Source: Deltaproteobacteria bacterium
GTDB lineage: Bacteria; Desulfobacterota; Syntrophia; Syntrophales; Smithellaceae
Length of the DNA: 45,333 nucleotides
NCBI GenBank assembly: GCA_011046295.1
Contig: DSAV01000102.1
Span: forward strand, 1-45,333
Reading direction: 5' to 3'
Positions 1,656 to 13,142 of this stretch are shown here, piece after piece (position 1 is the first letter of the stretch; each line of letters starts with the position of its first letter). Under the pieces are notes generated by a model. It saw only the letters and a program-made list of their open reading frames with translations, did not search any database and had not been told where the DNA came from. The position numbers were made by a program, and so were the translations under genes.

Positions 1656-2729
1656 ATGGATAATTTCTTCATAGAAAATTCCTGTCCCGCTTTAAAAAAC
1701 AACAAGCCTGACACTTGTCTGTATACTTATATTATGGACAGCATCGACCTGGGTATTGTCATTCTAGGCGTAAAAAGGCGGGAAATTATTTTTAAAAATA
1801 AATTTGCTTCCGAGCTTTTTCAGGAAGAAGAAAACAAGCTCGGATACAAAGCTCTTATGACATTGCTTTTACCCGATTACGCCGACGTTCCGACAAAAGA
1901 TATTATCGGCAAAACCAATACACTTTGGCATAAAAGCCGTCTTCTGGGTTACACACCTTACATGATTTCGGATGATTTCATCTGGGTTATCATAAGAGAT
2001 ATAACAGAAAGAAGCCGCCTGGAATCCATTGCGGAAGCAGTCAGCTCCATGGAAAATATAAGCTACATTTTTTCCGGCATCCGCCATGAACTGGGAAATC
2101 CCATAAATTCCATAAAAATGACCCTGAGTGTCCTCAAAAGAAATCTCAGTCATTATTCGGTAAGCGCCGTGGAGAGGTTTGTGGATCGCGCGATGACGGA
2201 AATATCCCGCGTAGAGTTCCTTCTGCAGGCACTAAAAAATTTCAGTCTGTTTGAAAACCCGGATATACAGGATATTGAAATCGAAGATTTTCTGACTCGA
2301 TTCATTTCGTTGATCTCCAGCGACATGAATCAGGCAGGAATTAAAATCAGCCATGTATTAGTCCCTCCTGCGGAAAAAATCAGCGCGGATCCGCGCCTTT
2401 TGCACCAGGTTATCCTCAACCTGATAACCAATGCGACAGATGCTCTGCTGAACTGTGACAATAAACAAATAATGATCAGGGCCGAAAAGCAAGAAGGATT
2501 TGTTGCTATTGCCATTGAAGACAACGGAATGGGGATGACAGAGGAAGAACAAACTAATCTTTTCAAGCCTTTTTACACGACAAAACCTCACGGAACCGGC
2601 CTGGGTTTAATGATTGCCTTAAAAATGGTAACGCTCATGAAGGGCAATATGGAAGTTAAAAGCTATAAAGACATAGGAACAAAAGTCACCGTCTTCATTC
2701 CTGAAGGCAAGGATTATGGGCACAGTTAA
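1656..2729 (+). CDS. cytoplasmic sensor histidine kinase (PAS-like N-terminus, HisKA, HATPase_c)
   Basis: H-box FSGIRHELGNPINSI, N-box NLITNATDAL, G1 DNGMGM and G2 GTGLGL. No TM segments. The 3' end overlaps the next gene by 14 nt. Confidence 0.85.
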   Translation: MDNFFIENSCPALKNNKPDTCLYTYIMDSIDLGIVILGVKRREIIFKNKFASELFQEEENKLGYKALMTLLLPDYADVPTKDIIGKTNTLWHKSRLLGYTPYMISDDFIWVIIRDITERSRLESIAEAVSSMENISYIFSGIRHELGNPINSIKMTLSVLKRNLSHYSVSAVERFVDRAMTEISRVEFLLQALKNFSLFENPDIQDIEIEDFLTRFISLISSDMNQAGIKISHVLVPPAEKISADPRLLHQVILNLITNATDALLNCDNKQIMIRAEKQEGFVAIAIEDNGMGMTEEEQTNLFKPFYTTKPHGTGLGLMIALKMVTLMKGNMEVKSYKDIGTKVTVFIPEGKDYGHS

Positions 2730-4098
2730 AAGAAATATCCTTGTTGTCGATGACAACGATATTTTCTGCGAATCTGTTCGTGACATTCTTCGTGACGAAG
2801 GTACTGAAGTTTTTACCGCCAATACGGGAAAAGACGGCCTGAAAATCTGTCAGAATTCAAAAATTGACGTTGTTATCCTGGATCAGAAGCTTCCCGATGC
2901 CGAAGGTGTATCTCTCTGCCCTTCAATATTACAGCAAAATGACCAGGCAAAAATAATCTTTGTCACTGCTTATCCAAGTTTCAGCAACGCGGTGGAGGCA
3001 ATTAAAGTAGGCGCTCATGATTATCTTTCCAAGCCTTTTGAAATGGCCGAACTGGAACTTACCGTAAAACAAGCTTTTCGCACACAGGAACTCGAAAAAA
3101 CGGAACAAATTCTTAATTACCACGACAGCAAGGAAAGCGAAGAAATCGGTCTTATCTCCGGAGGGGGAGTATTTGAGGAAATTATAAAAATGATTGACTT
3201 GGCAGCCACAAGCGACGCGCCGGTTCTCATTACCGGCGAAACCGGTACCGGCAAAAATGTTGTCGCGCGCGCAATTCATCATAAAAGTAATTTGCCCAAA
3301 AAACTTTTTTTGACAACAAATTGCGCCGCCTTTCCGGAAAGCCTTATTGAAGCAGAATTATTTGGTTCGGAAAAAGGCGCTTTTACCGGTGCTATATCGC
3401 TGCGCCGCGGTATTTTTGAACTTGCTGACGGAGGAACTCTTGTTTTAGATGAAATCGGTTCCATGCCTATTCATTTACAATCAAAGTTATTAGGAGTACT
3501 GGAAGAAAAAAGGATTCGCCGTGTAGGCGGTGAAAATTTAAAGCCCATAAATGTCCGCGTAATTGCCATATCAAACAATGATCTGGAAGAAGCGATAAAA
3601 ACTAAACAGTTCCGTGATGATCTCTACTACCGGCTTGGCGTAATTCGCATTCATATACCGCCGCTTCGGGAAAGAAAACAGGACATCCCAAAATTATGCG
3701 AATATTTTATCGGAAAAATGACCAAAAACTCAAGTATCAGAATTCCCGAACCGGAACTCGACAGATTATTGGAATACAAGTGGCCCGGAAACGTCCGTGA
3801 GCTGAAGAACGTTATCGAAAGGGCACTGATTGTTCAACACGGAAATATTCTGAAGCCTTCTCAAATGCTGAACAGCGGCCATAGTTTTTCATCTTTTTCC
3901 ATTATAAATGATCAGGATAAGGGAGATAAAATTGAAACAATGGAGGCCGTGGAAAAGCGACACATCAAAAACGCTCTGATAAAATATCATGGCAATTACT
4001 CACAAACTGCCCGGTCTTTAGGCGTTTCTCTTTCCACCTTAAAGAGAAAAGTTAAAACCTATCAACTCGCTACTATAGGCAAAAATGATAACCCCTAG
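2716..4098 (+). CDS. sigma-54-dependent response regulator (NtrC/PilR-type enhancer-binding protein)
   Basis: REC domain (VVDDND...VILDQKLPD...SKP). AAA+ sigma-54 interaction domain with Walker A GETGTGKN, the GAFTGA loop (EKGAFTGA) and Walker B VLDEIG. C-terminal Fis-type HTH (QTARSLGVSLSTLKRK). Confidence 0.9.
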   Translation: MGTVKRNILVVDDNDIFCESVRDILRDEGTEVFTANTGKDGLKICQNSKIDVVILDQKLPDAEGVSLCPSILQQNDQAKIIFVTAYPSFSNAVEAIKVGAHDYLSKPFEMAELELTVKQAFRTQELEKTEQILNYHDSKESEEIGLISGGGVFEEIIKMIDLAATSDAPVLITGETGTGKNVVARAIHHKSNLPKKLFLTTNCAAFPESLIEAELFGSEKGAFTGAISLRRGIFELADGGTLVLDEIGSMPIHLQSKLLGVLEEKRIRRVGGENLKPINVRVIAISNNDLEEAIKTKQFRDDLYYRLGVIRIHIPPLRERKQDIPKLCEYFIGKMTKNSSIRIPEPELDRLLEYKWPGNVRELKNVIERALIVQHGNILKPSQMLNSGHSFSSFSIINDQDKGDKIETMEAVEKRHIKNALIKYHGNYSQTARSLGVSLSTLKRKVKTYQLATIGKNDNP

Positions 4099-4203: not shown

Positions 4204-4283
4204 TTTGTTTTTAATAAAAGCGTTGGTTAATTCTTTTTTATTAAAGAATAGAAAACTAAATCAAACAAAGATGGGAGATAATT

Positions 4284-5603
4284 ATGATTAGCGCGGCAAC
4301 TAATTTTGAATCCCTCAGACAAAGAACTGCTGCTTCGCCAGGTGACAATTTCCTGAAAGGAAAAACTTCACGTGTGGGCGAAGTCCTTATCGTCGATGAC
4401 GAAGAGCCCTTTGTTTTGAGCCTCGCGGACGGGTTAAGTGTTTATAAAAACTTTTTTAACTTGCGAACAGCGCCAAACGGGGCGGAAGCAGTAAAAATTT
4501 TAAAATTGTCCACGATTGACCTGGTTATCACTGATCTGAGCATGCCCAAAATGGATGGCTTTGAGCTTCTTGCCTACATGAACAGAAACTATCCTAAAAT
4601 ACCTGTTATTTTAATGACTGCTTACGGAACCCCAAAAATAGAAGAAATTGTTCAAAATATGGGGATTTTCCGTTATCTTGAAAAACCTCTCGATATTAAT
4701 TCCATCGCCGACAATATTTTCGACGCTCTGGGAATTAAAACATCACCGGCAGAAGCACTAACACAGGCATCAGACCAAAAACGTGAAGCAGGATCGACAC
4801 AACGTTTTGCTATTTCTACCGAAAAGATGATTCCAAAGCCCGATGATGATGCAGAGCCGGAAGCAGCGACAAAAACATCCGCAACTTTTGGTTCCCGTAC
4901 CAGCATATCTCTATCTGATTTGGAAAAGATAAAAGACGAAGCACGGAAAAAACAGGCAGCCAAGGGTAAGGCCATGAAGCCCTCGGCCGCGGCAGAAAAA
5001 GATGCCGCGGATGCTGCGGAAAAAAGAGCGATACTGGAAGCAAAAGCCAGGGCGGAAGCCGAAAGGATAGCTCGTGAAGAGGCAGAACGTAAGGCCCAGG
5101 AAGCCGAGGAAAAAGCAATACAGGAGGCCCGCGCCCGTGAAGAAGCGGAAAGAAAGGCCAGAGAAGCAGAAGAAAAGGTGGAAAAGGCCAGACAGGAAGC
5201 GCTCGCCCGTGAAGAAGCGATGAAAAGGGCAAGAGCGGAAGCGGAAACTCAGGAAAAAGCCAGACAGGAAGCGCTCGCCCGTGAAGAAGCCGCGCGAAAA
5301 GCCAAAGAAAAGGAAGCCGAGGAAAAGGCCAGACAGGAAGCGCTCGCCAGAGAAGAAGAAGTCAAAAAGGCAAGAGCGGAAGAAGAAGCTCAGGAAAAGG
5401 CCAGACAGGAAGCACTCGCCAGAGAAGAAGCCGCACGCAAGGCCAAGGACGAAGAAGAAGCAAAAGAAAAGGCACGGCAAGAAGCGCTCGCCCGTGAAGA
5501 AGAGCGCAATACAAGGCAACAGGCAGATGCTGAAACAAAAGAAGCGGCGCGAAAAGAGTTAAAATCAGAAACCAAAGAAAGGCTGAGTGCCTGGAAAAAA
5601 TAA
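4284..5603 (+). CDS. response-regulator receiver domain fused to a long A/E/K/R-rich repeat (coiled-coil-like) tail; FrzS-like architecture
   Basis: The REC domain has the acidic pocket VDDEE, phospho-acceptor context VITDLSMP, and LMTAYG and EKPL motifs. A low-complexity linker follows, then about 200 aa composed almost only of A, E, K, R and Q, with EKARQEALAREE recurring five times. GGGAGA RBS. Confidence 0.8.
   Translation: MISAATNFESLRQRTAASPGDNFLKGKTSRVGEVLIVDDEEPFVLSLADGLSVYKNFFNLRTAPNGAEAVKILKLSTIDLVITDLSMPKMDGFELLAYMNRNYPKIPVILMTAYGTPKIEEIVQNMGIFRYLEKPLDINSIADNIFDALGIKTSPAEALTQASDQKREAGSTQRFAISTEKMIPKPDDDAEPEAATKTSATFGSRTSISLSDLEKIKDEARKKQAAKGKAMKPSAAAEKDAADAAEKRAILEAKARAEAERIAREEAERKAQEAEEKAIQEARAREEAERKAREAEEKVEKARQEALAREEAMKRARAEAETQEKARQEALAREEAARKAKEKEAEEKARQEALAREEEVKKARAEEEAQEKARQEALAREEAARKAKDEEEAKEKARQEALAREEERNTRQQADAETKEAARKELKSETKERLSAWKK
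5181..5505 (+). repeat. five in-frame tandem DNA repeats with 69-72 nt period inside the CDS
   Basis: The unit gaaaaggccagacaggaagcgctcgcc(c/a)g(t/a)gaagaag recurs starting at 5181, 5253, 5322, 5394 and 5466, with only a few substitutions. Confidence 0.8.
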
Positions 5604-5637
5604 ATTACCTAAAATTAACTAAATAGGATGACTGCTT

Positions 5638-6006
5638 ATGAACGTTGCAAAACTAAACGAGACTGTTGAGCTGCTGAAAGAGAATTTAGGCGAAAGTCTT
5701 CTTTGTACAGCAATTGCCATGAATGTTGACGGACAGTCAATTGCCGGGTTTAATTCGACCCCAAAATTCGCCGCTTTGTGTGTCAAGATAATCAAAGTTG
5801 TCAATGACTCCGCTAAAATAGGCGGATTGCCACAAATTGGAAAATATGTTACCTTTGACCTGCAGGAAGACAGGGTTTTAGTCGTATTGCCTCTCGGTGA
5901 ATATATTTGGGGAATTCTTTTAGACAGCAACAAAACACAAATGGGGCTTTTGCTGAACATCGAAATACCCGCGGCAATCGAAGCATTCGCTGAAGCGATT
6001 TCCTAA
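5638..6006 (+). CDS. Roadblock/LC7 (MglB-like) domain protein
   Basis: 122 aa. The pattern LLCTAIAMNVDGQSIAGF...LVVLPLGEYIWGILLD...MGLL fits the alpha-beta-alpha Robl_LC7 layout. It starts 34 nt after the preceding gene on the same strand. Confidence 0.55.
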   Translation: MNVAKLNETVELLKENLGESLLCTAIAMNVDGQSIAGFNSTPKFAALCVKIIKVVNDSAKIGGLPQIGKYVTFDLQEDRVLVVLPLGEYIWGILLDSNKTQMGLLLNIEIPAAIEAFAEAIS

Positions 6007-6099
6007 GAAGATAGCGATTAAAGAATTCAGCAACACCTAATAGGTCAAGACTGTATAATTAATATAAAATTTAAAAAATAATTTCCTACGGAGAAAAAA

Positions 6100-8430
6100 A
6101 TGCGTAAACCAGGTTCATATTCTGCCGGCGCGCAAAAAGATACTCTTTCCAGCGCGCCACAAGTAGAAGAGCTTCTGAAAAATTTAGAATTTCACAAATC
6201 AATTCAAAATATCAACAACCGCATAAACAGCGCGGAAAACATAAAAGAAATAATTGTAGACATTAAAGAAGAGATAAGAAAACTTTTTAATATCGACATC
6301 CTGACAATTTACGCCTTTGACAAAGCGAAAAAAGAACTTTATACCATCCGCCAGGAAGGAGATAATGTCCAGGATATTCGCTTGCTCGTAAATAACTCCT
6401 CAGTCGCCGGTTACGCAGCAAACAACAAGCGGACAATATTGATAAACGACGTCTATGACGAACGTGAGCTGAAAAGATTCAGCGATCAATTAAAATATGA
6501 CCGCACATCGGACAGACAAAGAGGAGTATTGACCGGCCAGGTTCTGGCGATTCCCATCATGTATGACCGTAATATCATGGGAGTGCTGGAAGTGATGACC
6601 CAAAAAGGTGGAGATAAAATAGAAGACTACCGCCAGATTTTTCTTGACGAAATATGTAATGTGCTCGGAATTGCCTTTTACAATCAGGAAAAGTTCAGCA
6701 AGCAGCGCCCCCATTCCAAATTTGATTATTTGATCAGGCAGGGTCGCGTTACCCAGGCGCAAATCGATAAAGTCACGGAAGAAGCGCGTGAAAAAAAAGA
6801 ACCAATTGAAAATATCCTCATTAGTAAATACGAAATCAACAAAGAAGAAGTCGGCATGTGTCTGGCCGAATATCATAATTGCGAATTTATTACCTATAAC
6901 GATAAAATACCTATTCCCGGAGACCTGCTGAAAAATCTCAAAAGGCCTTATTTAAGGCGTGAAATATGGGTTCCGCTGGAAAGGATTGACGGAAAAATCA
7001 GAGTTCTTGTTGATGATCCGACAAATATTATCAAAAAAGATACCATCGAAAATCTCTTAAAGACCAAACAAATCAGATACGATGTTTCGTTTGCCGAAGA
7101 TATTTTGAGATACATCGACCGTTTTTTTGCGGCGCCTCAGGATAGCGCCTCCATAGATGAGATAATCGGGAAGCTGGACCAGGACGAAGAGGTTTACGAA
7201 GAAGAAGACGGCGAAGTCATCACCGAATCACATAGTGTCATCATGCAGTTGGTAAACAAACTCATTAATGAAGCTTATGCCCGCCGCGCATCCGACATAC
7301 ATATTGAGCCGAATACGGACACAAAAAATGTCGATGTCCGTTACCGCGTGGACGGAGAATGCTCGTTGTATCAAACTCTTCCCTACAGTTACCGCGCGGC
7401 AGTTGTTTCCCGCATAAAGATCATGTCCAACCTGGATATTACCGTTAAAAGATTGCCTCAGGATGGAAAAATCAAGTACCGGCGGGCGGGAAGCGAAGAG
7501 CTGGAATTGCGCGTTGCCACCATTCCAACCCAGGGAGGCGTGGAAGATATTGTCATACGTATCCTGGCCAAAGGAACAACCATGCCCCTGGATTCGATTG
7601 CCTTGTCTGAACGCAATTACAAGGAACTGTTCAAAATATTGGAACAACCATACGGAATGATTTTGTGCGTGGGGCCTACCGGCTCCGGAAAAACAACCAC
7701 CCTGCATGCCGGCCTCAAGCATATCAACACCCCGGGCCGCAAAATATGGACGGCGGAAGACCCGGTGGAAATAACCCAACATGGGCTGCGACAGGTTCAG
7801 GTGCAGCCGAAAATAGGCTTTGATTTTGCCGCAGCCATGCGTTCTTTTTTGCGCGCGGACCCGGATGTTATTATGGTTGGCGAAATGCGCGATTTTGAAA
7901 CAGCGAAAATCGGCGTGGAAGCATCGCTTACCGGCCATCTCGTTCTCAGCACACTGCACACAAACAGCGCGCCGGAAACCATTGTTCGTCTTTTGGATAT
8001 GGGCATTGATCCGTTAAATTTCGCCGACGCTTTGTTGGGCATCCTGGCACAAAGACTGGTGCGGACACTTTGCAAAAAATGCAAGGAAGCGTACAACCCA
8101 AGCAAAGAAGAATACGAGGAAATTGCCGAGATATACGGGAAAAAAGCCTTTGATAAGTTGAATATTCGTTATTCAAGCGATTTTAAGCTTTACAAACCTA
8201 AGGGCTGCGAAGCGTGCGGCAACACGGGATACATGGGCCGCATGGGTATCCATGAACTTCTTGTCGCCTCAGATAACATTAAAAGAATGATTCAAAGACA
8301 CGAAAATGCGGAAATTATTCGCGAAGCTGCTATTGAGGAAGGAATGACCACGCTTTTGCAAGATGGCCTGCAAAAAACCCTGCAAGGCCATACTGACGTA
8401 AAGCAGGTAAGACGGGTTTGCATAAAATAA
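6100..8430 (+). CDS. GAF domain - T2SSE_N domain - type II/IV secretion ATPase (PilB/GspE family)
   Basis: The N-terminal ~200 aa are GAF-like (ILTIYAFD...VAGYAANNKRTILINDVYDE...AIPIMYDRNIMGVLEVM). The middle region is GspE_N/MshEN-like (FDYLIRQGRVTQAQIDKV...). The ATPase core has Walker A GPTGSGKTTT, the Asp/His boxes (MVGEMRD, LSTLHTN) and a tetracysteine CKKC...CEAC motif. Confidence 0.85.
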   Translation: MRKPGSYSAGAQKDTLSSAPQVEELLKNLEFHKSIQNINNRINSAENIKEIIVDIKEEIRKLFNIDILTIYAFDKAKKELYTIRQEGDNVQDIRLLVNNSSVAGYAANNKRTILINDVYDERELKRFSDQLKYDRTSDRQRGVLTGQVLAIPIMYDRNIMGVLEVMTQKGGDKIEDYRQIFLDEICNVLGIAFYNQEKFSKQRPHSKFDYLIRQGRVTQAQIDKVTEEAREKKEPIENILISKYEINKEEVGMCLAEYHNCEFITYNDKIPIPGDLLKNLKRPYLRREIWVPLERIDGKIRVLVDDPTNIIKKDTIENLLKTKQIRYDVSFAEDILRYIDRFFAAPQDSASIDEIIGKLDQDEEVYEEEDGEVITESHSVIMQLVNKLINEAYARRASDIHIEPNTDTKNVDVRYRVDGECSLYQTLPYSYRAAVVSRIKIMSNLDITVKRLPQDGKIKYRRAGSEELELRVATIPTQGGVEDIVIRILAKGTTMPLDSIALSERNYKELFKILEQPYGMILCVGPTGSGKTTTLHAGLKHINTPGRKIWTAEDPVEITQHGLRQVQVQPKIGFDFAAAMRSFLRADPDVIMVGEMRDFETAKIGVEASLTGHLVLSTLHTNSAPETIVRLLDMGIDPLNFADALLGILAQRLVRTLCKKCKEAYNPSKEEYEEIAEIYGKKAFDKLNIRYSSDFKLYKPKGCEACGNTGYMGRMGIHELLVASDNIKRMIQRHENAEIIREAAIEEGMTTLLQDGLQKTLQGHTDVKQVRRVCIK

Positions 8431-8512: not shown

Positions 8513-9049
8513 CTAAAAATAATCTGCCGAGAAGACGAAAATCTTTGTTTCTTTTTCCTTCCAGGCATCCGGCGGAAGCCCTGCCTTGTAACAAGTTTCC
8601 CGTAAAAATGTTTCTCTATCCCATCCTTGTTCTATCGCTACCTGGGGCAACAATAATCCGGAGTTATAACCTCGCATAAGATATAAGCCGTGAATGCCTA
8701 CTTTAATCGCATCAATCTCTTCAATTTGTTTCAGCGGACTTAAAACAGAAATCTCAACCGTCAAATCAGGAAGTTCTTCCGGCTTCAGCGAGGGAAATCT
8801 CGGATCATGAAACGCCGCCGCCACAGCCATTTCCTGCACAGTCTCCCAAAGCGGCTTAACCGCCTTTATGTATCCGATGCACCCGCGTAAATGGCCGCTC
8901 TTTTTTATGGTAACAAAAGCGCCGCTCTTTTTATTAAGCGCCTTGGATTCCACGGTTAATTTAGGCATTTCCTTGCTGTTAACCTTGGCGGCAATTGTTT
9001 TTTTTACGATATCCAAAAGGAAGTCTTTTTCTTTCTGAGTCAATTCCAT
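8513..9049 (-). CDS. AMMECR1 domain protein (AmmeMemoRadiSam system protein A)
   Basis: GAFVTIKKSGHLRGCIGYI and HDPRFP motifs are typical of AMMECR1. 178 aa. Confidence 0.85.
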   Translation of the reverse strand: MELTQKEKDFLLDIVKKTIAAKVNSKEMPKLTVESKALNKKSGAFVTIKKSGHLRGCIGYIKAVKPLWETVQEMAVAAAFHDPRFPSLKPEELPDLTVEISVLSPLKQIEEIDAIKVGIHGLYLMRGYNSGLLLPQVAIEQGWDRETFLRETCYKAGLPPDAWKEKETKIFVFSADYF

Positions 9050-9227
9050 GTTGTCATCATCTTAAATATTTTTTTAGTGTAAAATAATTTGTTATTTATA
9101 TTAAAAAATTATCCTTAAAACAAACACGTGAACAATGCTTAATATTTAGCGGATATTATTATAACCTGAGAACTTCAAGATTAGGAAACGCGCAAATAAA
9201 AATATACACCGCCCTTCACAACATATT

Positions 9228-10055
9228 TTACAGATAATAAACAGCTGCCGCGTACCCGACAACAGAGCTTTTATCACCGCTTACATCCCCGGAATCAGCA
9301 TATTTTAATACATGTGATTTTGTCGCCCCCATCTTTTGCGCTACCATTATCGCTGTCGCCATAGGGCCTCCTCCACAGGCCTCGACCGAATTATCATTCA
9401 AACTTCTGAGCAAACCATTGGCATCGGCTTTTTCCAGGTATTTAACGGCATGATTATCTAGCCTTGCTGCTTTTCGATAATCGTGAAAATGAGATAAATC
9501 AGAACTTCCCACAATCAGAATTTTCTTTCCACGCGCGGCTTGCTTAATTGCTTCAGCAAGTTCGCGGCAGATAGTTTCGTTTTGCTCACCCATTACCAAT
9601 GGGACAAAGGAAAAATCACCCAACGCAAACTGCAAAAAGGGTAGTTGAATTTCAATGGAATGCTCCTGCAGGTGCGCGGCGGGCACATCCCGTATGGAAT
9701 CGTTCAAAGACATAATTTTATGGCAAAACTGCTCATCGACAGGAACAATACCCAAAGGAGTTTCATAACCGCCCGAGGGATAAACGGAAACACCGGGAAA
9801 AGCAACCCGGTGACTCGGACCGACGATAATTACAGTGTCATACTCCTTGCTGCTGACAAGTTTATAGGCATGCGCCGCGACTTGCCCCGAATACATATAG
9901 CCGGCATGCGGCGCGACGATACCTTTGATTTCTCCGTTCAATGGAAAATCTGCCACTGAATTAAAATATTTTTCAATATCTTTTCGTAAAGCATCCGGCT
10001 GCCCCGGATACCAGGAGCCCGCTATAACCGCTTTTCTTACTGCCTGTATCTCCAT
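9228..10055 (-). CDS. MEMO1-family protein (AmmeMemoRadiSam system protein B)
   Basis: AGSWYP...IVAPHAGYMYSG...GPSH...SSDLSH motifs of the Memo/extradiol-dioxygenase-like family. 275 aa. It starts 15 nt after the upstream fusion gene. Confidence 0.85.
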   Translation of the reverse strand: MEIQAVRKAVIAGSWYPGQPDALRKDIEKYFNSVADFPLNGEIKGIVAPHAGYMYSGQVAAHAYKLVSSKEYDTVIIVGPSHRVAFPGVSVYPSGGYETPLGIVPVDEQFCHKIMSLNDSIRDVPAAHLQEHSIEIQLPFLQFALGDFSFVPLVMGEQNETICRELAEAIKQAARGKKILIVGSSDLSHFHDYRKAARLDNHAVKYLEKADANGLLRSLNDNSVEACGGGPMATAIMVAQKMGATKSHVLKYADSGDVSGDKSSVVGYAAAVYYL

Positions 10056-10070
10056 GCCAGATCACCCTTT

Positions 10071-12419
10071 TTACCTAAAACGCCAGATTACCCCCTGGGG
10101 TGTATCCAAAACATCAACTCCCAGACTCAGAAGTTCGTGACGCAGTTTATCCGCTTCCGGCCAATTATGCCGGCTTCTTGCTTCACTTCTTTTTGCGATA
10201 AGTTCCTTTATTTTTCTGACTTCAGCGCTGGCTGCCTTTGTTTTAAAATCCATAACTCCCAAGACTTCATTGATATTTTCTAATATTTTAAGTGCCTTTT
10301 TTGCGTCTGCTTTGCCTAGCAACCCTTTTGCCAGCAGATTATTAATCTTCCCCATAAATTCGAAAATAGCAGCCAGAGCTCCGGCAATGTTTAAATCGTC
10401 GTCCATGGCCACTTCGAATCCGATTTTCAAATCGTATATCCACTGGTTAATTTCGGCAAACTCGTCTTTGCCGCTATCCACGGAGATCAGCCGGTAAATA
10501 AAAGTATTAATTTTTTTAACGGTGTTTTTCGCCGCCGCTAATGCCTCTTGTGAAAAACTAATTGGTTTACGGTAATTGACCCCCAGCAGGAAAAATCTGA
10601 TATCTGGACCACGATAGCCATTTTGCCTTAACTTGCTCAACACAACAGTATTGTCCAATGAACGCGACATTTTTTTGCCGTTAATCAATACCATCTCGGC
10701 ATTGATCCAGTAATTTGCGCCGCTGTTGCCCGTAAAAGCCTTATTAATAGCCAGAATATTTTCTCCGTGCGGAAAAGTCTCGTCAACTCCGCCTATGTTA
10801 ATATCATAAATCGGCCCCAAATATTTCTGTGTAACGGACACGCATCCCAAATGCCAGGAAGGCCTCACGCTGCCCCAGCGCGTGTTATAATATATGCCTC
10901 TTTTCAGTTCGTTTAGGTTTGACCTCTTCAACAAGGCAAAGTCGGCAGGACTGTCTTTGTCATAATCATCAAGGTCAATGGATTTTCCCTGCCTCGTTTT
11001 CGACAAATCTATATTGGAAAGAGTTCCATAATCCGGAAGCTTGGAAATATCGTAATAAACAGAGCGCAGCTTTTCATAAGCGAAATTTTTTTCGGCCAGC
11101 CTGTCGACAATTTTGAGCATTTCATCGATATTTTTCGATGCTTTAACATAAGTATTTTCCTCGCGTATATTCAAAAAAGCCACGTCTTCCAGAAACATCC
11201 GCTCATACTTATCGGAATAAGCCGTTAAGTTCATCGAAGCATTATCCGAACCCTTGATTGATTTATCCGTAATGTCGACTATGTCCACAACGTGTTTTAC
11301 CACAAAACCTTTGTATGCCAGATAGCGGCAAATCATGTCCGCCACGATAAAACGCCGGTAATTTCCGAGGTGAGGCTCATCATAAACGGTTGGGCCGCAG
11401 GTGTGCACCGTTATCTCCCCCGGCTTAACCGGCTTAAATATTGTTTTTTGACGACTAGTAATATTATAAAGGGAAAAAGAAGGAAGCTCTTCTTTAAAAG
11501 CAAAGAGCTCAGTGGTCAAATACCTTTCTCCGCTGTCAGGAAAGATGACCACTATGACTCCTTCTTGCATTTTTCTTGCTTCCTGCGCGGCAACAAACAT
11601 GGCCGCACCGGAACTCATACCCCCCAATATTCCTTCTTCACGCGCAAGCCTGCGGGCCATTTCAAATGCGTCTTCGTCCAGAATATTGACTTTTTCATCA
11701 AGCAAAGTTTTATCAAATATCCCCGGGCGATAAGATTCCTTCATATTTTTCAGCCCCTGAATCTTATGCTTTAAATAAGGTTCAACGCCGATGATTCTGA
11801 TGCCGGGGTTTAATTCTTTCAAGCGCTTGGACAGCCCCATGGCCGTCCCCGTTGTGCCCAGAGTTGCAACCACCGCGGTAACTTTACTTTTAGTTTGCTG
11901 CCATATTTCCTGGGCGGTACCGTGATAGTGAGCAGCGATATTATCCGTGTTATTGAACTGGTCAGTACCGAAGTATTTCTCCGGATTTTCACGCAATAAC
12001 TTATAAACATATTCAATAGAGCCGTCCGTACCAAGATTAGCGGGCGTAAAATGAAGCTCGGCGCCCATGGCCTTGAGAATTTTTTTTCTTTCTTCGCTGG
12101 CAGACTCCGGCATGGCCAGACTCAACCTGTATCCTTTGGCCGCGGCAATCATCGCCAGGCCTATCCCCGTATTTCCGCTGGTCGCTTCCAGAATAATTTT
12201 ATCAGGCGTGAGGTCCCCTCTTTCCTCCGCGCCTTTAATCATAAAAAGAGCCGTGCGGTCCTTAATTGAGCCTCCGGGATTCGCGCTCTCTAATTTGGCA
12301 AATATTTTTACTTTTTTATTGGGATTAAGTCTTCTGATTTCCACCAGCGGCGTGTTGCCGATGCCTTCAATGATATTTCCTAATAATTTTCGCATAAACT
12401 TGTAACTGAATCCGTACAA
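10071..12419 (-). CDS. fusion of PLP-dependent cysteine synthase (CysK/CysM-like, aa ~10-305) to a full-length cysteinyl-tRNA synthetase-like enzyme (aa ~315-782)
   Basis: The N-terminal half has GNTPLVEI, ESANPGGSIKDR (PLP lysine), SGNTG and GTTGT. The C-terminal half begins like a complete CysRS (LYNITSRQKTIFKPVKPGEITVHTCGPTVYD). It carries WHLGC, KMSRS, MDDDLN and a terminal DTPQGVIWRFR. It is a single uninterrupted 782-aa ORF. Confidence 0.85.
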   Translation of the reverse strand: MYGFSYKFMRKLLGNIIEGIGNTPLVEIRRLNPNKKVKIFAKLESANPGGSIKDRTALFMIKGAEERGDLTPDKIILEATSGNTGIGLAMIAAAKGYRLSLAMPESASEERKKILKAMGAELHFTPANLGTDGSIEYVYKLLRENPEKYFGTDQFNNTDNIAAHYHGTAQEIWQQTKSKVTAVVATLGTTGTAMGLSKRLKELNPGIRIIGVEPYLKHKIQGLKNMKESYRPGIFDKTLLDEKVNILDEDAFEMARRLAREEGILGGMSSGAAMFVAAQEARKMQEGVIVVIFPDSGERYLTTELFAFKEELPSFSLYNITSRQKTIFKPVKPGEITVHTCGPTVYDEPHLGNYRRFIVADMICRYLAYKGFVVKHVVDIVDITDKSIKGSDNASMNLTAYSDKYERMFLEDVAFLNIREENTYVKASKNIDEMLKIVDRLAEKNFAYEKLRSVYYDISKLPDYGTLSNIDLSKTRQGKSIDLDDYDKDSPADFALLKRSNLNELKRGIYYNTRWGSVRPSWHLGCVSVTQKYLGPIYDINIGGVDETFPHGENILAINKAFTGNSGANYWINAEMVLINGKKMSRSLDNTVVLSKLRQNGYRGPDIRFFLLGVNYRKPISFSQEALAAAKNTVKKINTFIYRLISVDSGKDEFAEINQWIYDLKIGFEVAMDDDLNIAGALAAIFEFMGKINNLLAKGLLGKADAKKALKILENINEVLGVMDFKTKAASAEVRKIKELIAKRSEARSRHNWPEADKLRHELLSLGVDVLDTPQGVIWRFR

Positions 12420-12470: not shown

Positions 12471-12914
12471 TTAACTATCCATTTTAAACGCCGGAATTTT
12501 GATAAAATGGACGCCTTCTTCCTTTAAGTTTTCTTCCTCCTGGGCAGTTGTTGTGCCTTTTATATTGCGCTTTTCTTCCTCCCCGGAATGAATCTTTAAC
12601 GCAACTTCGGCAAATTTATTACCCACGTCTTCAAAATTTTTATCTACATACTGGTGCAGTACCTGCAAGGCTTTAAGAGGAGAAATTTCTTTTTCCTGAA
12701 GCTTGCCTGCCGCGCGCGAATCCTTTCCCATGATAGTGATAGAAGAAGGAACTATATCTATATTCGAGCTGTTGCAAACCGGGCATGAAATAAGCTTTTG
12801 CGAATTTTGCGAATTCCATGCCTGCCGGTCTTTAAACCATCCTTCAAATTTATGGTTTTTTTCGCATTTTAAATCGTAGATAATCACTTTATTGATACTC
12901 CTGAAAATTAACAC
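12471..12914 (-). CDS. DUF1178 family zinc-ribbon protein
   Basis: IIYDLKCEKNHKFEGWF...CPVCNS is the DUF1178 N-terminal signature. The true start is probably the GTG at 12887 (VIIYDL...). Confidence 0.6.
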   Translation of the reverse strand: MLIFRSINKVIIYDLKCEKNHKFEGWFKDRQAWNSQNSQKLISCPVCNSSNIDIVPSSITIMGKDSRAAGKLQEKEISPLKALQVLHQYVDKNFEDVGNKFAEVALKIHSGEEEKRNIKGTTTAQEEENLKEEGVHFIKIPAFKMDS

Positions 12915-13065
12915 ACTTTAAGCTTAACACTTTGCCACCTAAAATACAATTTGCTATATTAAAAAGAAAATGTGCAAGTCGCTTGGATAATTTTCACAAA
13001 CATTAACACTCAGCAAATAAAAAAGTGGACAATTGAAAATAAATCTTATATCTTGCCTGCCGTGT

Positions 13066-13142
13066 CGGGATGTGGCCCAGCCTGGTAGGGCACTGCGTTC
13101 GGGACGCAGGAGTCGCGCGTTCAAATCGCGCCATCCCGACCA
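13066..13142 (+). tRNA. tRNA-Pro (anticodon CGG)
   Basis: 77-nt cloverleaf. Acceptor CGGGATG/CATCCCG, D-arm GCCC-AGCCTGGTA-GGGC, anticodon arm CTGCG-TTCGGGA-CGCAG (CGG at positions 34-36) and T-arm GCGCG-TTCAAAT-CGCGC. Discriminator A with encoded CCA. It closely parallels E. coli proline tRNA. Confidence 0.9.

Follow-up and report, generated by a model that had tools for sequence, protein, structure and literature searches.

A gene on contig DSAV01000102.1 of a Smithellaceae deltaproteobacterium (assembly GCA_011046295.1, positions 1 to 45,333; this whole 45,333-nucleotide stretch is called the window below) reads as a cysteine synthase continued in the same frame by a cysteinyl-tRNA synthetase (CysRS). 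The locus raises the question of what a CysRS does when it is attached to an enzyme that makes its amino acid. The original prediction, made from the window alone, offered two answers: that cysteine is channelled from synthesis directly to tRNA charging, or that a CysRS paralogue has been repurposed. Our analysis indicates that the CysRS-like half is a member of an old and distinct paralogous lineage which, judged by its sequences, occurs almost only fused or operon-adjacent to this type of CysM, in Desulfobacterota. The explanation that we favour, at a probability of only about 0.4, is a make-and-charge module: the protein would activate the cysteine that it makes and load it in cis onto tRNA-Cys, and a housekeeping CysRS would be encoded elsewhere.

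A cysteine synthase joined in frame to a CysRS-derived module

The maximal frame, 10071..12419 on the minus strand, is a real open reading frame of 782 amino acids with a TTG start. An ATG at 12395 is the likely start, giving 774 amino acids, and is used by the gene callers and by all homologues. Residues of the window protein are numbered in the 782-residue frame unless stated otherwise; the E. coli numbers C28, H40, T68, C209, H234, H235, E238 and K269 were assigned by alignment to 1LI5. Pfam places PALP at residues 18-295, tRNA-synt_1e at 328-631, DALR_2 at 668-722 and CysS_C at 738-780, and the match to the cysS model TIGR00435 covers model positions 2-464 of 466. This agrees with the claim that one frame holds a complete CysK/CysM-type enzyme and a full-length CysRS. 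The motif coordinates proved exact on the DNA, and the junction, which had been placed at about 11470-11505, holds a short linker; the frame runs through it with no stop or frameshift in the window and is continuous in all homologues. The features of the gene are as follows.

10071..12395 (-): fusion coding sequence, 774 amino acids plus a TAA stop (open reading frame call, homologue starts, DNA check)
11535..12368 (-): CysM-type cysteine synthase domain, PALP, dependent on pyridoxal phosphate (PLP) (Pfam, NCBIfam, CysM alignment)
12255-12269 (-): PLP-lysine motif SIKDR (DNA check)
12165-12182 (-): Asn loop TSGNTG of the CysM half
11844-11858 (-): Gly loop GTTGT of the CysM half
11742-11759 (-): lid loop QGLKNM of the CysM half
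11607-11618 (-): MSSG of the CysM half
11472-11498 (-): short junction linker FKEELPSFS (frame unbroken in all homologues)
10527..11438 (-): CysRS-type class I catalytic domain, tRNA-synt_1e, 253 bits (Pfam)
11388-11402 (-): TCGPT, containing the C28 equivalent
11361-11372 (-): HLGN, the HIGH-type motif (DNA check)
11277-11279 (-): Val at the T68 position
10851..11135 (-): CP (insertion) domain, bearing the lineage markers
11040-11081 (-): CP signature AYEKLRSVYYDISK
10923-10988 (-): CP signature GKSIDLDDYDKDSPADFALLKR
10887-10910 (-): four-residue insertion inside ELKRGIYY
10842-10856 (-): WHLGC, with W205, H206 and C209
10755-10775 (-): FPHGENI (DNA check)
10659-10673 (-): KMSRS (DNA check)
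10254..10418 (-): DALR_2 helical domain (Pfam)
10080..10208 (-): CysS_C anticodon-binding domain (Pfam)
10074-10106 (-): C-terminal tail DTPQGVIWRFR (DNA check)

The N-terminal half is predicted to be a catalytically complete CysM-type PLP-dependent cysteine synthase. Its best match among solved structures is E. coli CysM, 2BHS (5e-74), with which the PLP lysine, the Asn loop, the Gly loop and the SSG all align. The window protein passed the cysKM subfamily model of NCBIfam (363 bits, cutoff 344) and fell below both equivalog models, cysM (368 bits, cutoff 394) and cysK (319 bits, cutoff 351). By its domains and residues the C-terminal half appears to be a full-length CysRS-derived module and not an ordinary CysRS. 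It scored 357.4 bits against TIGR00435 (cutoff 340), and the CysS_C signature residues R736, D749, R752, G759 and D764 are retained in every fusion clade.

We searched 5.8 billion proteins, clustered at 90% identity, and found more than 120 clusters with 69-80% identity to the window protein, lengths of 770-783 amino acids and the same five Pfam domains. The assemblies behind them are from JGI, ENA, NCBI and Logan, and many of the clusters bear the name Smithella, Smithellaceae or Syntrophaceae. A GTDB scan found the fused architecture in 8 species of the window clade and in 11 more distant ones; the scan of the CysRS half used window-specific 8-mers and so sampled the clade narrowly. Independent contigs share the gene order YicC, Gmk, RpoZ, PyrF, SpoU, PilC, tRNA-Pro, DUF1178, fusion, Memo, AMMECR1. 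Because the architecture recurs in clusters from independent assemblies, we conclude that the fusion is not an artefact. Both halves are under purifying selection, with a ratio of nonsynonymous to synonymous substitution rates of about 0.03-0.06 in the CysM half versus about 0.08-0.12 in the CysRS half. At the protein level the CysRS half (59-76% identical) changes about twice as fast as the CysM half (80-90% identical).

A paralogous lineage, its motifs and its surroundings

We compared the motifs of the CysRS half with those of 81 stand-alone full-length CysRS representatives. Relative to 1LI5 the window protein has the changes H40N, T68V, H235G, E238I and K269R and keeps C28, C209, H234, W205 and H206. 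HLGN had been counted as a deviation from HIGH, a view that did not survive: the fourth residue, which is Asn in the window clade, is also Asn in 61 of the 81 and His in 15, and three of them read exactly HLGN. The genuine anomalies are T68V, H235G/C, E238I/V and K269R, each present in 0-3 of the 81. KMSRS, correctly read in place of KMSKS by the original prediction, occurs in two of the stand-alone proteins (P0142, a split-operon relative of the fusions, and one other) and is invariant in the window clade. The suspected loss of the Glu238 zinc ligand is likewise upheld, because the 1LI5 alignment gives E238I; this position is Glu in 80 of the 81 and Ile or Val in the window clade. FPHGENI, also called atypical, is verified as sequence, but its Gly is specific to the subclade of the window. 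Most members of the clade have Cys at this position (FPHCENI/V), where 79 of the 81 ordinary proteins have His (H235). The earlier list of deviations overlooked T68V: all 81 have Thr, and Val is invariant in the window clade.

T68 contacts the alpha-amino group of the substrate in CysRS. Arg in place of the second Lys of KMSKS may or may not be a functional replacement. The effects of T68V and K269R on activity are uncertain, and the roles that we assign to these residues are those of the E. coli structure. HLGN, KMSRS, C28, C209, H234 and W205 are invariant in at least 17 members of the clade, which share 66-80% identity.

An exhaustive search of 1.84 billion representatives, together with a second protein search and the GTDB scan, revealed further CysM-CysRS-like fusions in Desulfobacterales, Desulfobulbia, Thermodesulfobacteriaceae, Desulfovibrionales and unclassified deltaproteobacterial metagenome-assembled genomes. 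The fused state was found in the window and at loci L001-L029, with the exception of L007. There (4209-7293) a PALP protein of 305 amino acids and a KMSRS-type CysRS of 468 amino acids are separate genes 4 nt apart. In all fusion clades the CysM motifs S[IV]KDR, [TS]SGNTG and QGLKN[ML] are invariant. The motifs of the CysRS-like half fall into the following states outside the window clade.

Near-canonical group (P0121/L009, L019-L022, L029, L010): HLG[NL], NITD, WHIEC, FPH[HNS]ENE, KMSRS
Partly decayed, L023: KMSNK
Partly decayed, L026/L027: DLGH with K[LM]GP
Partly decayed, L025: DLSM with KMAPG
Partly decayed, L024: DPGH, LHLQC, LSEED
Partly decayed, L028: TSGPT, SLGE, WHIQS
Dead group, cultured Desulfovibrionales (D. 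ferrophilus, Desulfocurvus, Maridesulfovibrio, Desulfobaculum, Desulfoplanes): C28, HIGH, C209 and KMSKS all gone

The dead forms (P0125, P0295-P0413, and L005 10001-12295 of Maridesulfovibrio hydrothermalis, FO203522.1) are about 760-800 amino acids long and are named only 'cysteine synthase'. Their CysM half is intact and their CysRS-like half is full-length, with the CP and anticodon-binding domains in place.

These groups are held together by markers that we tested against 59 ordinary CysRS. All fusion groups share a 4-residue insertion in the CP domain that is absent from the 59. Two CP signatures, AYEK[LH]xSVY[FY]DISK and G[KR][ST][IV]DLDDYxKDxPxDF[AT]L[LF]KR, and a set of derived residues (W to L/F in FALWK, G to V, S to A after C209, Q241 to I/M) also occur in none of them. 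The window clade has all of the markers, as do the KMSRS-type, partly decayed and dead groups. When the consensus of the window clade was compared with that of the dead forms, the CP domain agreed at 46 of 66 positions and the two Rossmann halves at 17 of 47 and 23 of 58. The CP domain is thus the best-conserved region of the CysRS half between the window clade and the dead forms. We rest lineage membership on the shared insertion and derived residues because our CysRS tree, a midpoint-rooted neighbour-joining tree, is prone to long-branch effects; its deeper branching was not relied upon.

That the fused module is a paralogue can be seen directly at L021, an 11.9-kb contig that carries both a fusion (229-2628) and a canonical CysRS (9273-10892), 6.6 kb apart. 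The fusion reads HLGL, FPHNENE and KMSRS and scores 423 bits on TIGR00435 and 320 bits on tRNA-synt_1e. The ordinary copy reads HIGH, NFTD, WHIEC, FPHHENE and KMSKS and scores 551 and 451 bits. In that organism the fused module is therefore a paralogue. Where the motifs are dead, a separate CysRS is logically required.

To compare the groups we defined a universal core of 69 columns with an identity of 90% or more across the 59 ordinary CysRS. This core is 98% kept in ordinary CysRS and 99% kept in the second, ordinary copy of L021. It is 87% kept in the KMSRS-type (L021-type) fusions, 78% in the window clade (range 75-80%), 78% in the partly decayed group and 53% in the dead group. The CysRS half of the window protein is 30% identical to the ordinary CysRS of L021, compared with 38% for the L021 fusion and 35-36% for L026/L027.

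The score on TIGR00435 does not separate these states. The fusion at L026 (8930-11398), the one locus of L023-L028 that was scored against this model, has neither the HIGH histidine nor KMSKS and still scores 369 bits against the cutoff of 340, above the 357 bits of the window protein; ordinary copies score 517-551 bits. Neither a pass on TIGR00435 nor the name 'cysteine--tRNA ligase' can therefore be taken as a sign of function.

One fusion lies outside the lineage. P0124, from a Nanoarchaeota metagenome-assembled genome, is a CysK-CysRS fusion of 768 amino acids with fully canonical CysRS motifs and 517 bits on TIGR00435. Its position in the tree, surrounded by ordinary CysRS, marks it as an independent fusion event; the protein may truly be bifunctional, in an organism with a small genome. 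Three stand-alone proteins of 460-506 amino acids, P0144, P0146 and P0152, have degenerate KMSKS motifs (KLSSD, KMARS and KITAE, respectively), which indicates that decaying CysRS paralogues also occur unfused.

The gene keeps the same neighbours throughout the window clade: DUF1178 and tRNA-Pro(CGG) lie upstream of the fusion, and a Memo-like gene and AMMECR1 lie downstream (window 8513-10055 and 12471-13142). The Memo-like gene, 15 nt from the fusion, is probably co-transcribed with it. The nearby gmk, rpoZ, pyrF and glyQS make this a conserved housekeeping neighbourhood. No sulfur-metabolism gene, tRNA-Cys or SepRS was found in the 45-kb window, where the only tRNA is tRNA-Pro. The gene context in Maridesulfovibrio was uninformative.

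Other genes were seen next to individual fusions. Directly upstream of the fusion at L023 (6407-8472), and syntenically at L026 and L027, are genes for an NrfD-like polysulfide-reductase membrane subunit and a 4Fe-4S protein, which may be a link to sulfur supply. At L010 the fusion P0280 is preceded, at a distance of 35 nt, by a gene for a HAD-family hydrolase (2698-3387) of PF12710, a Pfam family that includes phosphoserine-phosphatase-like enzymes. Further along the window, at 6100-8430, is a PilB/T2SSE-type secretion ATPase with an N-terminal GAF domain besides MshEN, kept in L001 and L008.

What the CysRS-like half may do

In the explanation that we favour, the N-terminal half would make cysteine, and the CysRS-like half would capture it in cis, activate it and then move it to tRNA-Cys. 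This would be a dedicated route tying cysteine synthesis to tRNA-Cys, and the genome would have a separate housekeeping CysRS gene at another site. The parts of this that we infer are that the module is catalytically competent, that cysteine is channelled and that the window genome has a second cysS. Two lines of evidence argue for retained chemistry. In the window clade HLGN, KMSRS and the zinc triad never vary, while sister clades decay, which argues that ATP- and zinc-dependent chemistry has been retained. MshC, the mycothiol cysteine ligase, has Ser at the Glu238 position, and a Cys/Cys/His triad is thus enough for a zinc-cysteine site. As these motifs are invariant and under selection, and as MshC uses the same triad, we infer that the module binds ATP, cysteine (via zinc) and tRNA-Cys. 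Retained catalysis in the window clade is plausible, as is binding of tRNA by a module that keeps DALR_2, CysS_C and their conserved residues.

Several observations weigh against this explanation. T68V, H235G/C and E238I/V, seen in 0 of the 81 ordinary CysRS, could alter the activation of cysteine or eliminate it. In many sister clades the catalytic motifs are gone, so the function that defines the lineage needs no aminoacylation, and the window clade could be heading towards a similar loss. No tRNA-Cys or selC*-like gene was found near any fusion locus, and no operon partner or neighbour recurs across the fusion clades. AlphaFold predicted well-folded domains (mean pLDDT, the per-residue confidence score, 83) with a pTM, the score for overall topology, of only 0.64, and a fixed channel between the active sites is therefore unsupported by the prediction. 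Finally, neither the 45-kb window nor the sequence up to 10 kb from any window-clade locus showed a second cysS, a result that covers the loci only, and the fusion may be the only CysRS of its genome.

The last point leads to the alternative that the ordinary cysS has been lost and that the fused module alone charges tRNA-Cys, fed with fresh cysteine. This would be direct channelling into the cell's own CysRS, the first answer of the original prediction. In its favour, the module has all domains of a CysRS, with invariant motifs of the HIGH type, the KMSKS type and the zinc triad, and it is under purifying selection in a conserved housekeeping neighbourhood. The curated cysS cutoff is passed and no second cysS appears in the window of about 45 kb or in the flanks of the other loci, and P0124, whose motifs are canonical, shows that evolution can yield a bifunctional CysK-CysRS. 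Against it, L021 has an ordinary CysRS alongside its member of the lineage, and any genome with a dead-motif form must have one too. The window clade keeps 78% of the universal core, less than the 87% kept by the proven L021-type paralogues, with T68 and E238 among the losses, and the identity between the window module and an ordinary CysRS of the deltaproteobacteria is only 30%. The pass on TIGR00435 does not discriminate, given the 369 bits of the dead-motif L026. Channelling of this kind is possible, though we give it a lower probability than the make-and-charge module.

What stays constant across the lineage appears to be the CysM motifs, the remodelled CP domain and the anticodon-binding domain. 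The aminoacylation motifs, to go by their repeated loss, are dispensable. The conserved role of the lineage would most plausibly be carried by the CP and anticodon-binding domains, through binding of tRNA-Cys. This is the pattern expected under another alternative, in which a non-catalytic module binds tRNA-Cys and/or cysteine and gates the fused synthase as a sensor or regulator, with a logic like that of HisZ-HisG or of the HisRS-like domain of GCN2. Full-length dead forms persist in many cultured Desulfovibrionales, the window clade has odd substitutions at cysteine-site positions (T68V, E238I/V), and HisZ is an established aminoacyl-tRNA synthetase paralogue that regulates the synthesis of its own amino acid (PMC9437257). 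The predicted structure is also consistent with such a role. Its sole stretches of low pLDDT are the CysM lid loop (residues 215-225, 11721-11753) and a CP signature (residues 468-483, 10947-10994), which are among the most conserved segments of the family, the lid loop being invariant. Low pLDDT together with high conservation suggests elements that become ordered on partner binding, and the two loops are candidate interaction elements. Against a sensor stands the finding that no member of the window clade departs from HLGN, KMSRS or the zinc triad, motifs that have decayed in the sister clades where catalytic loss is clear. For the window protein we find this alternative doubtful, to much the same degree as a sole CysRS.

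A broader form of this idea is that the module is primarily a tRNA-Cys-binding device. It would either sense uncharged tRNA-Cys or cysteine and switch the synthase, in a circuit like that of HisZ or GCN2, or present a tRNA-bound substrate to the PLP domain, as a bacterial route analogous to SepCysS. The window clade would then be an intermediate that still has its ATP and zinc motifs. We give this a somewhat smaller chance.

The second answer of the original prediction, a repurposed CysRS paralogue, is borne out in its general form by the distinct lineage (CP insertion and derived residues), the coexistence at L021 and the motif loss in Desulfovibrionales; of the two precedents that it cited, MshC fits poorly, and our results speak neither for nor against the persulfide-synthase activity of CysRS. 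In an MshC-like ligase the module would activate cysteine and join it to an acceptor other than tRNA, either a small thiol precursor or a carrier protein. MshC, itself a CysRS paralogue, does this with the same Cys/Cys/His triad and no Glu238, and a ThiF/E1-like gene follows the split pair in L007. However, this gene is at no other locus and no conserved biosynthetic partner genes lie nearby. The anticodon-binding domain and DALR_2, which MshC does not have, are kept in all clades, and the score on the MshC model TIGR03447 is 162 bits against a cutoff of 485. We regard such a ligase as improbable.

The possibility that a frameshift, missed stop or misassembly has merged separate cysM and cysS genes has a negligible chance of being right: a split version does exist naturally (L007), but the window frame is unbroken across the junction, the same fusion occurs in the more than 120 clusters and in the GTDB species described above, and each half is under purifying selection.

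Relation to known systems

We found no description of a CysK/CysM-CysRS fusion in the literature; most subscription journals lay outside our coverage and a prior description is possible. No link of this lineage to SepRS has been reported in the literature. A 2022 review lists only MshC and CysRS* as CysRS paralogues (PMC9437257), and the CysM-associated CysRS-like family would be a third. Members of this large family occur in several Desulfobacterota classes and in cultured species whose genomes are complete (Desulfovibrio ferrophilus, Maridesulfovibrio hydrothermalis). Across the family the catalytic motifs grade naturally from intact to dead, while the CysM partner stays constant. Aminoacyl-tRNA synthetase paralogues with new roles are an active field, and here such a paralogue is coupled to the metabolism of its cognate amino acid.

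The family also bears on annotation. NCBI names its members 'cysteine--tRNA ligase' or 'cysteine synthase' by score cutoff, and dead-motif forms can pass. Since L026 passes the cysS cutoff with its motifs destroyed, automatic 'cysteine--tRNA ligase' names are unreliable in this family. Inference of CysRS copy number, or marker sets, that use TIGR00435 (which we take to be a GTDB marker) can be misled.

Like canonical CysRS (TIGR00435; E. coli 1LI5/1U0B), the module has a Rossmann core, a CP domain, DALR_2 and CysS_C, with the HIGH-type HLGN, C28, C209, H234 and W205. Unlike it, the module is fused to CysM, has the 4-residue CP insertion and CP signatures of its own and carries T68V, H235G/C, E238I/V and K269R; of the canonical zinc ligands C28, C209, H234 and E238 it keeps only the first three. 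The N-terminal half has all the PLP and substrate-loop motifs of CysM, or O-acetylserine sulfhydrylase B (E. coli 2BHS, Salmonella 2JC3). It differs from CysM in scoring below the cysM equivalog cutoff, in its lineage-invariant QGLKNM lid loop and in its fusion to a CysRS-like module.

Among the CysRS paralogues, MshC (3C8Z, 8HFM) resembles the window module in having a Cys/Cys/His zinc site and no Glu at position 238; it reads GWHVEC...FPHHEYS...KMSKS. MshC differs in that it is an actinobacterial protein with no anticodon-binding domain and no attached cysteine synthase, and it keeps both T68 and KMSKS. CysRS* of Desulfobacterales is a second CysRS copy beside the ordinary one in deltaproteobacteria (Mukai et al., NAR; PMC5389517), is without an anticodon-binding domain and is linked to selC* tRNA-Cys and selB* genes (PMC5389517). 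In contrast, the window protein has the anticodon-binding domain and the CysM fusion, with no tRNA-Cys or selB nearby.

Two further systems were compared. SepRS/SepCysS couples the formation of cysteine to tRNA-Cys with the use of a PLP enzyme (PMC5424206). SepRS is a class II enzyme and SepCysS a fold-type I PLP enzyme, and their families and folds are unrelated to those of the window protein. In HisZ-HisG a HisRS paralogue is physically coupled to the enzyme that makes its own amino acid (PMC9437257), and the likeness is one of a synthetase paralogue coupled to cognate biosynthesis, which the dead Desulfovibrionales relatives fit well. HisZ is a separate subunit without catalytic motifs and acts with the first step of its pathway, whereas the window protein is a covalent fusion at the last step that keeps its ATP and zinc motifs.

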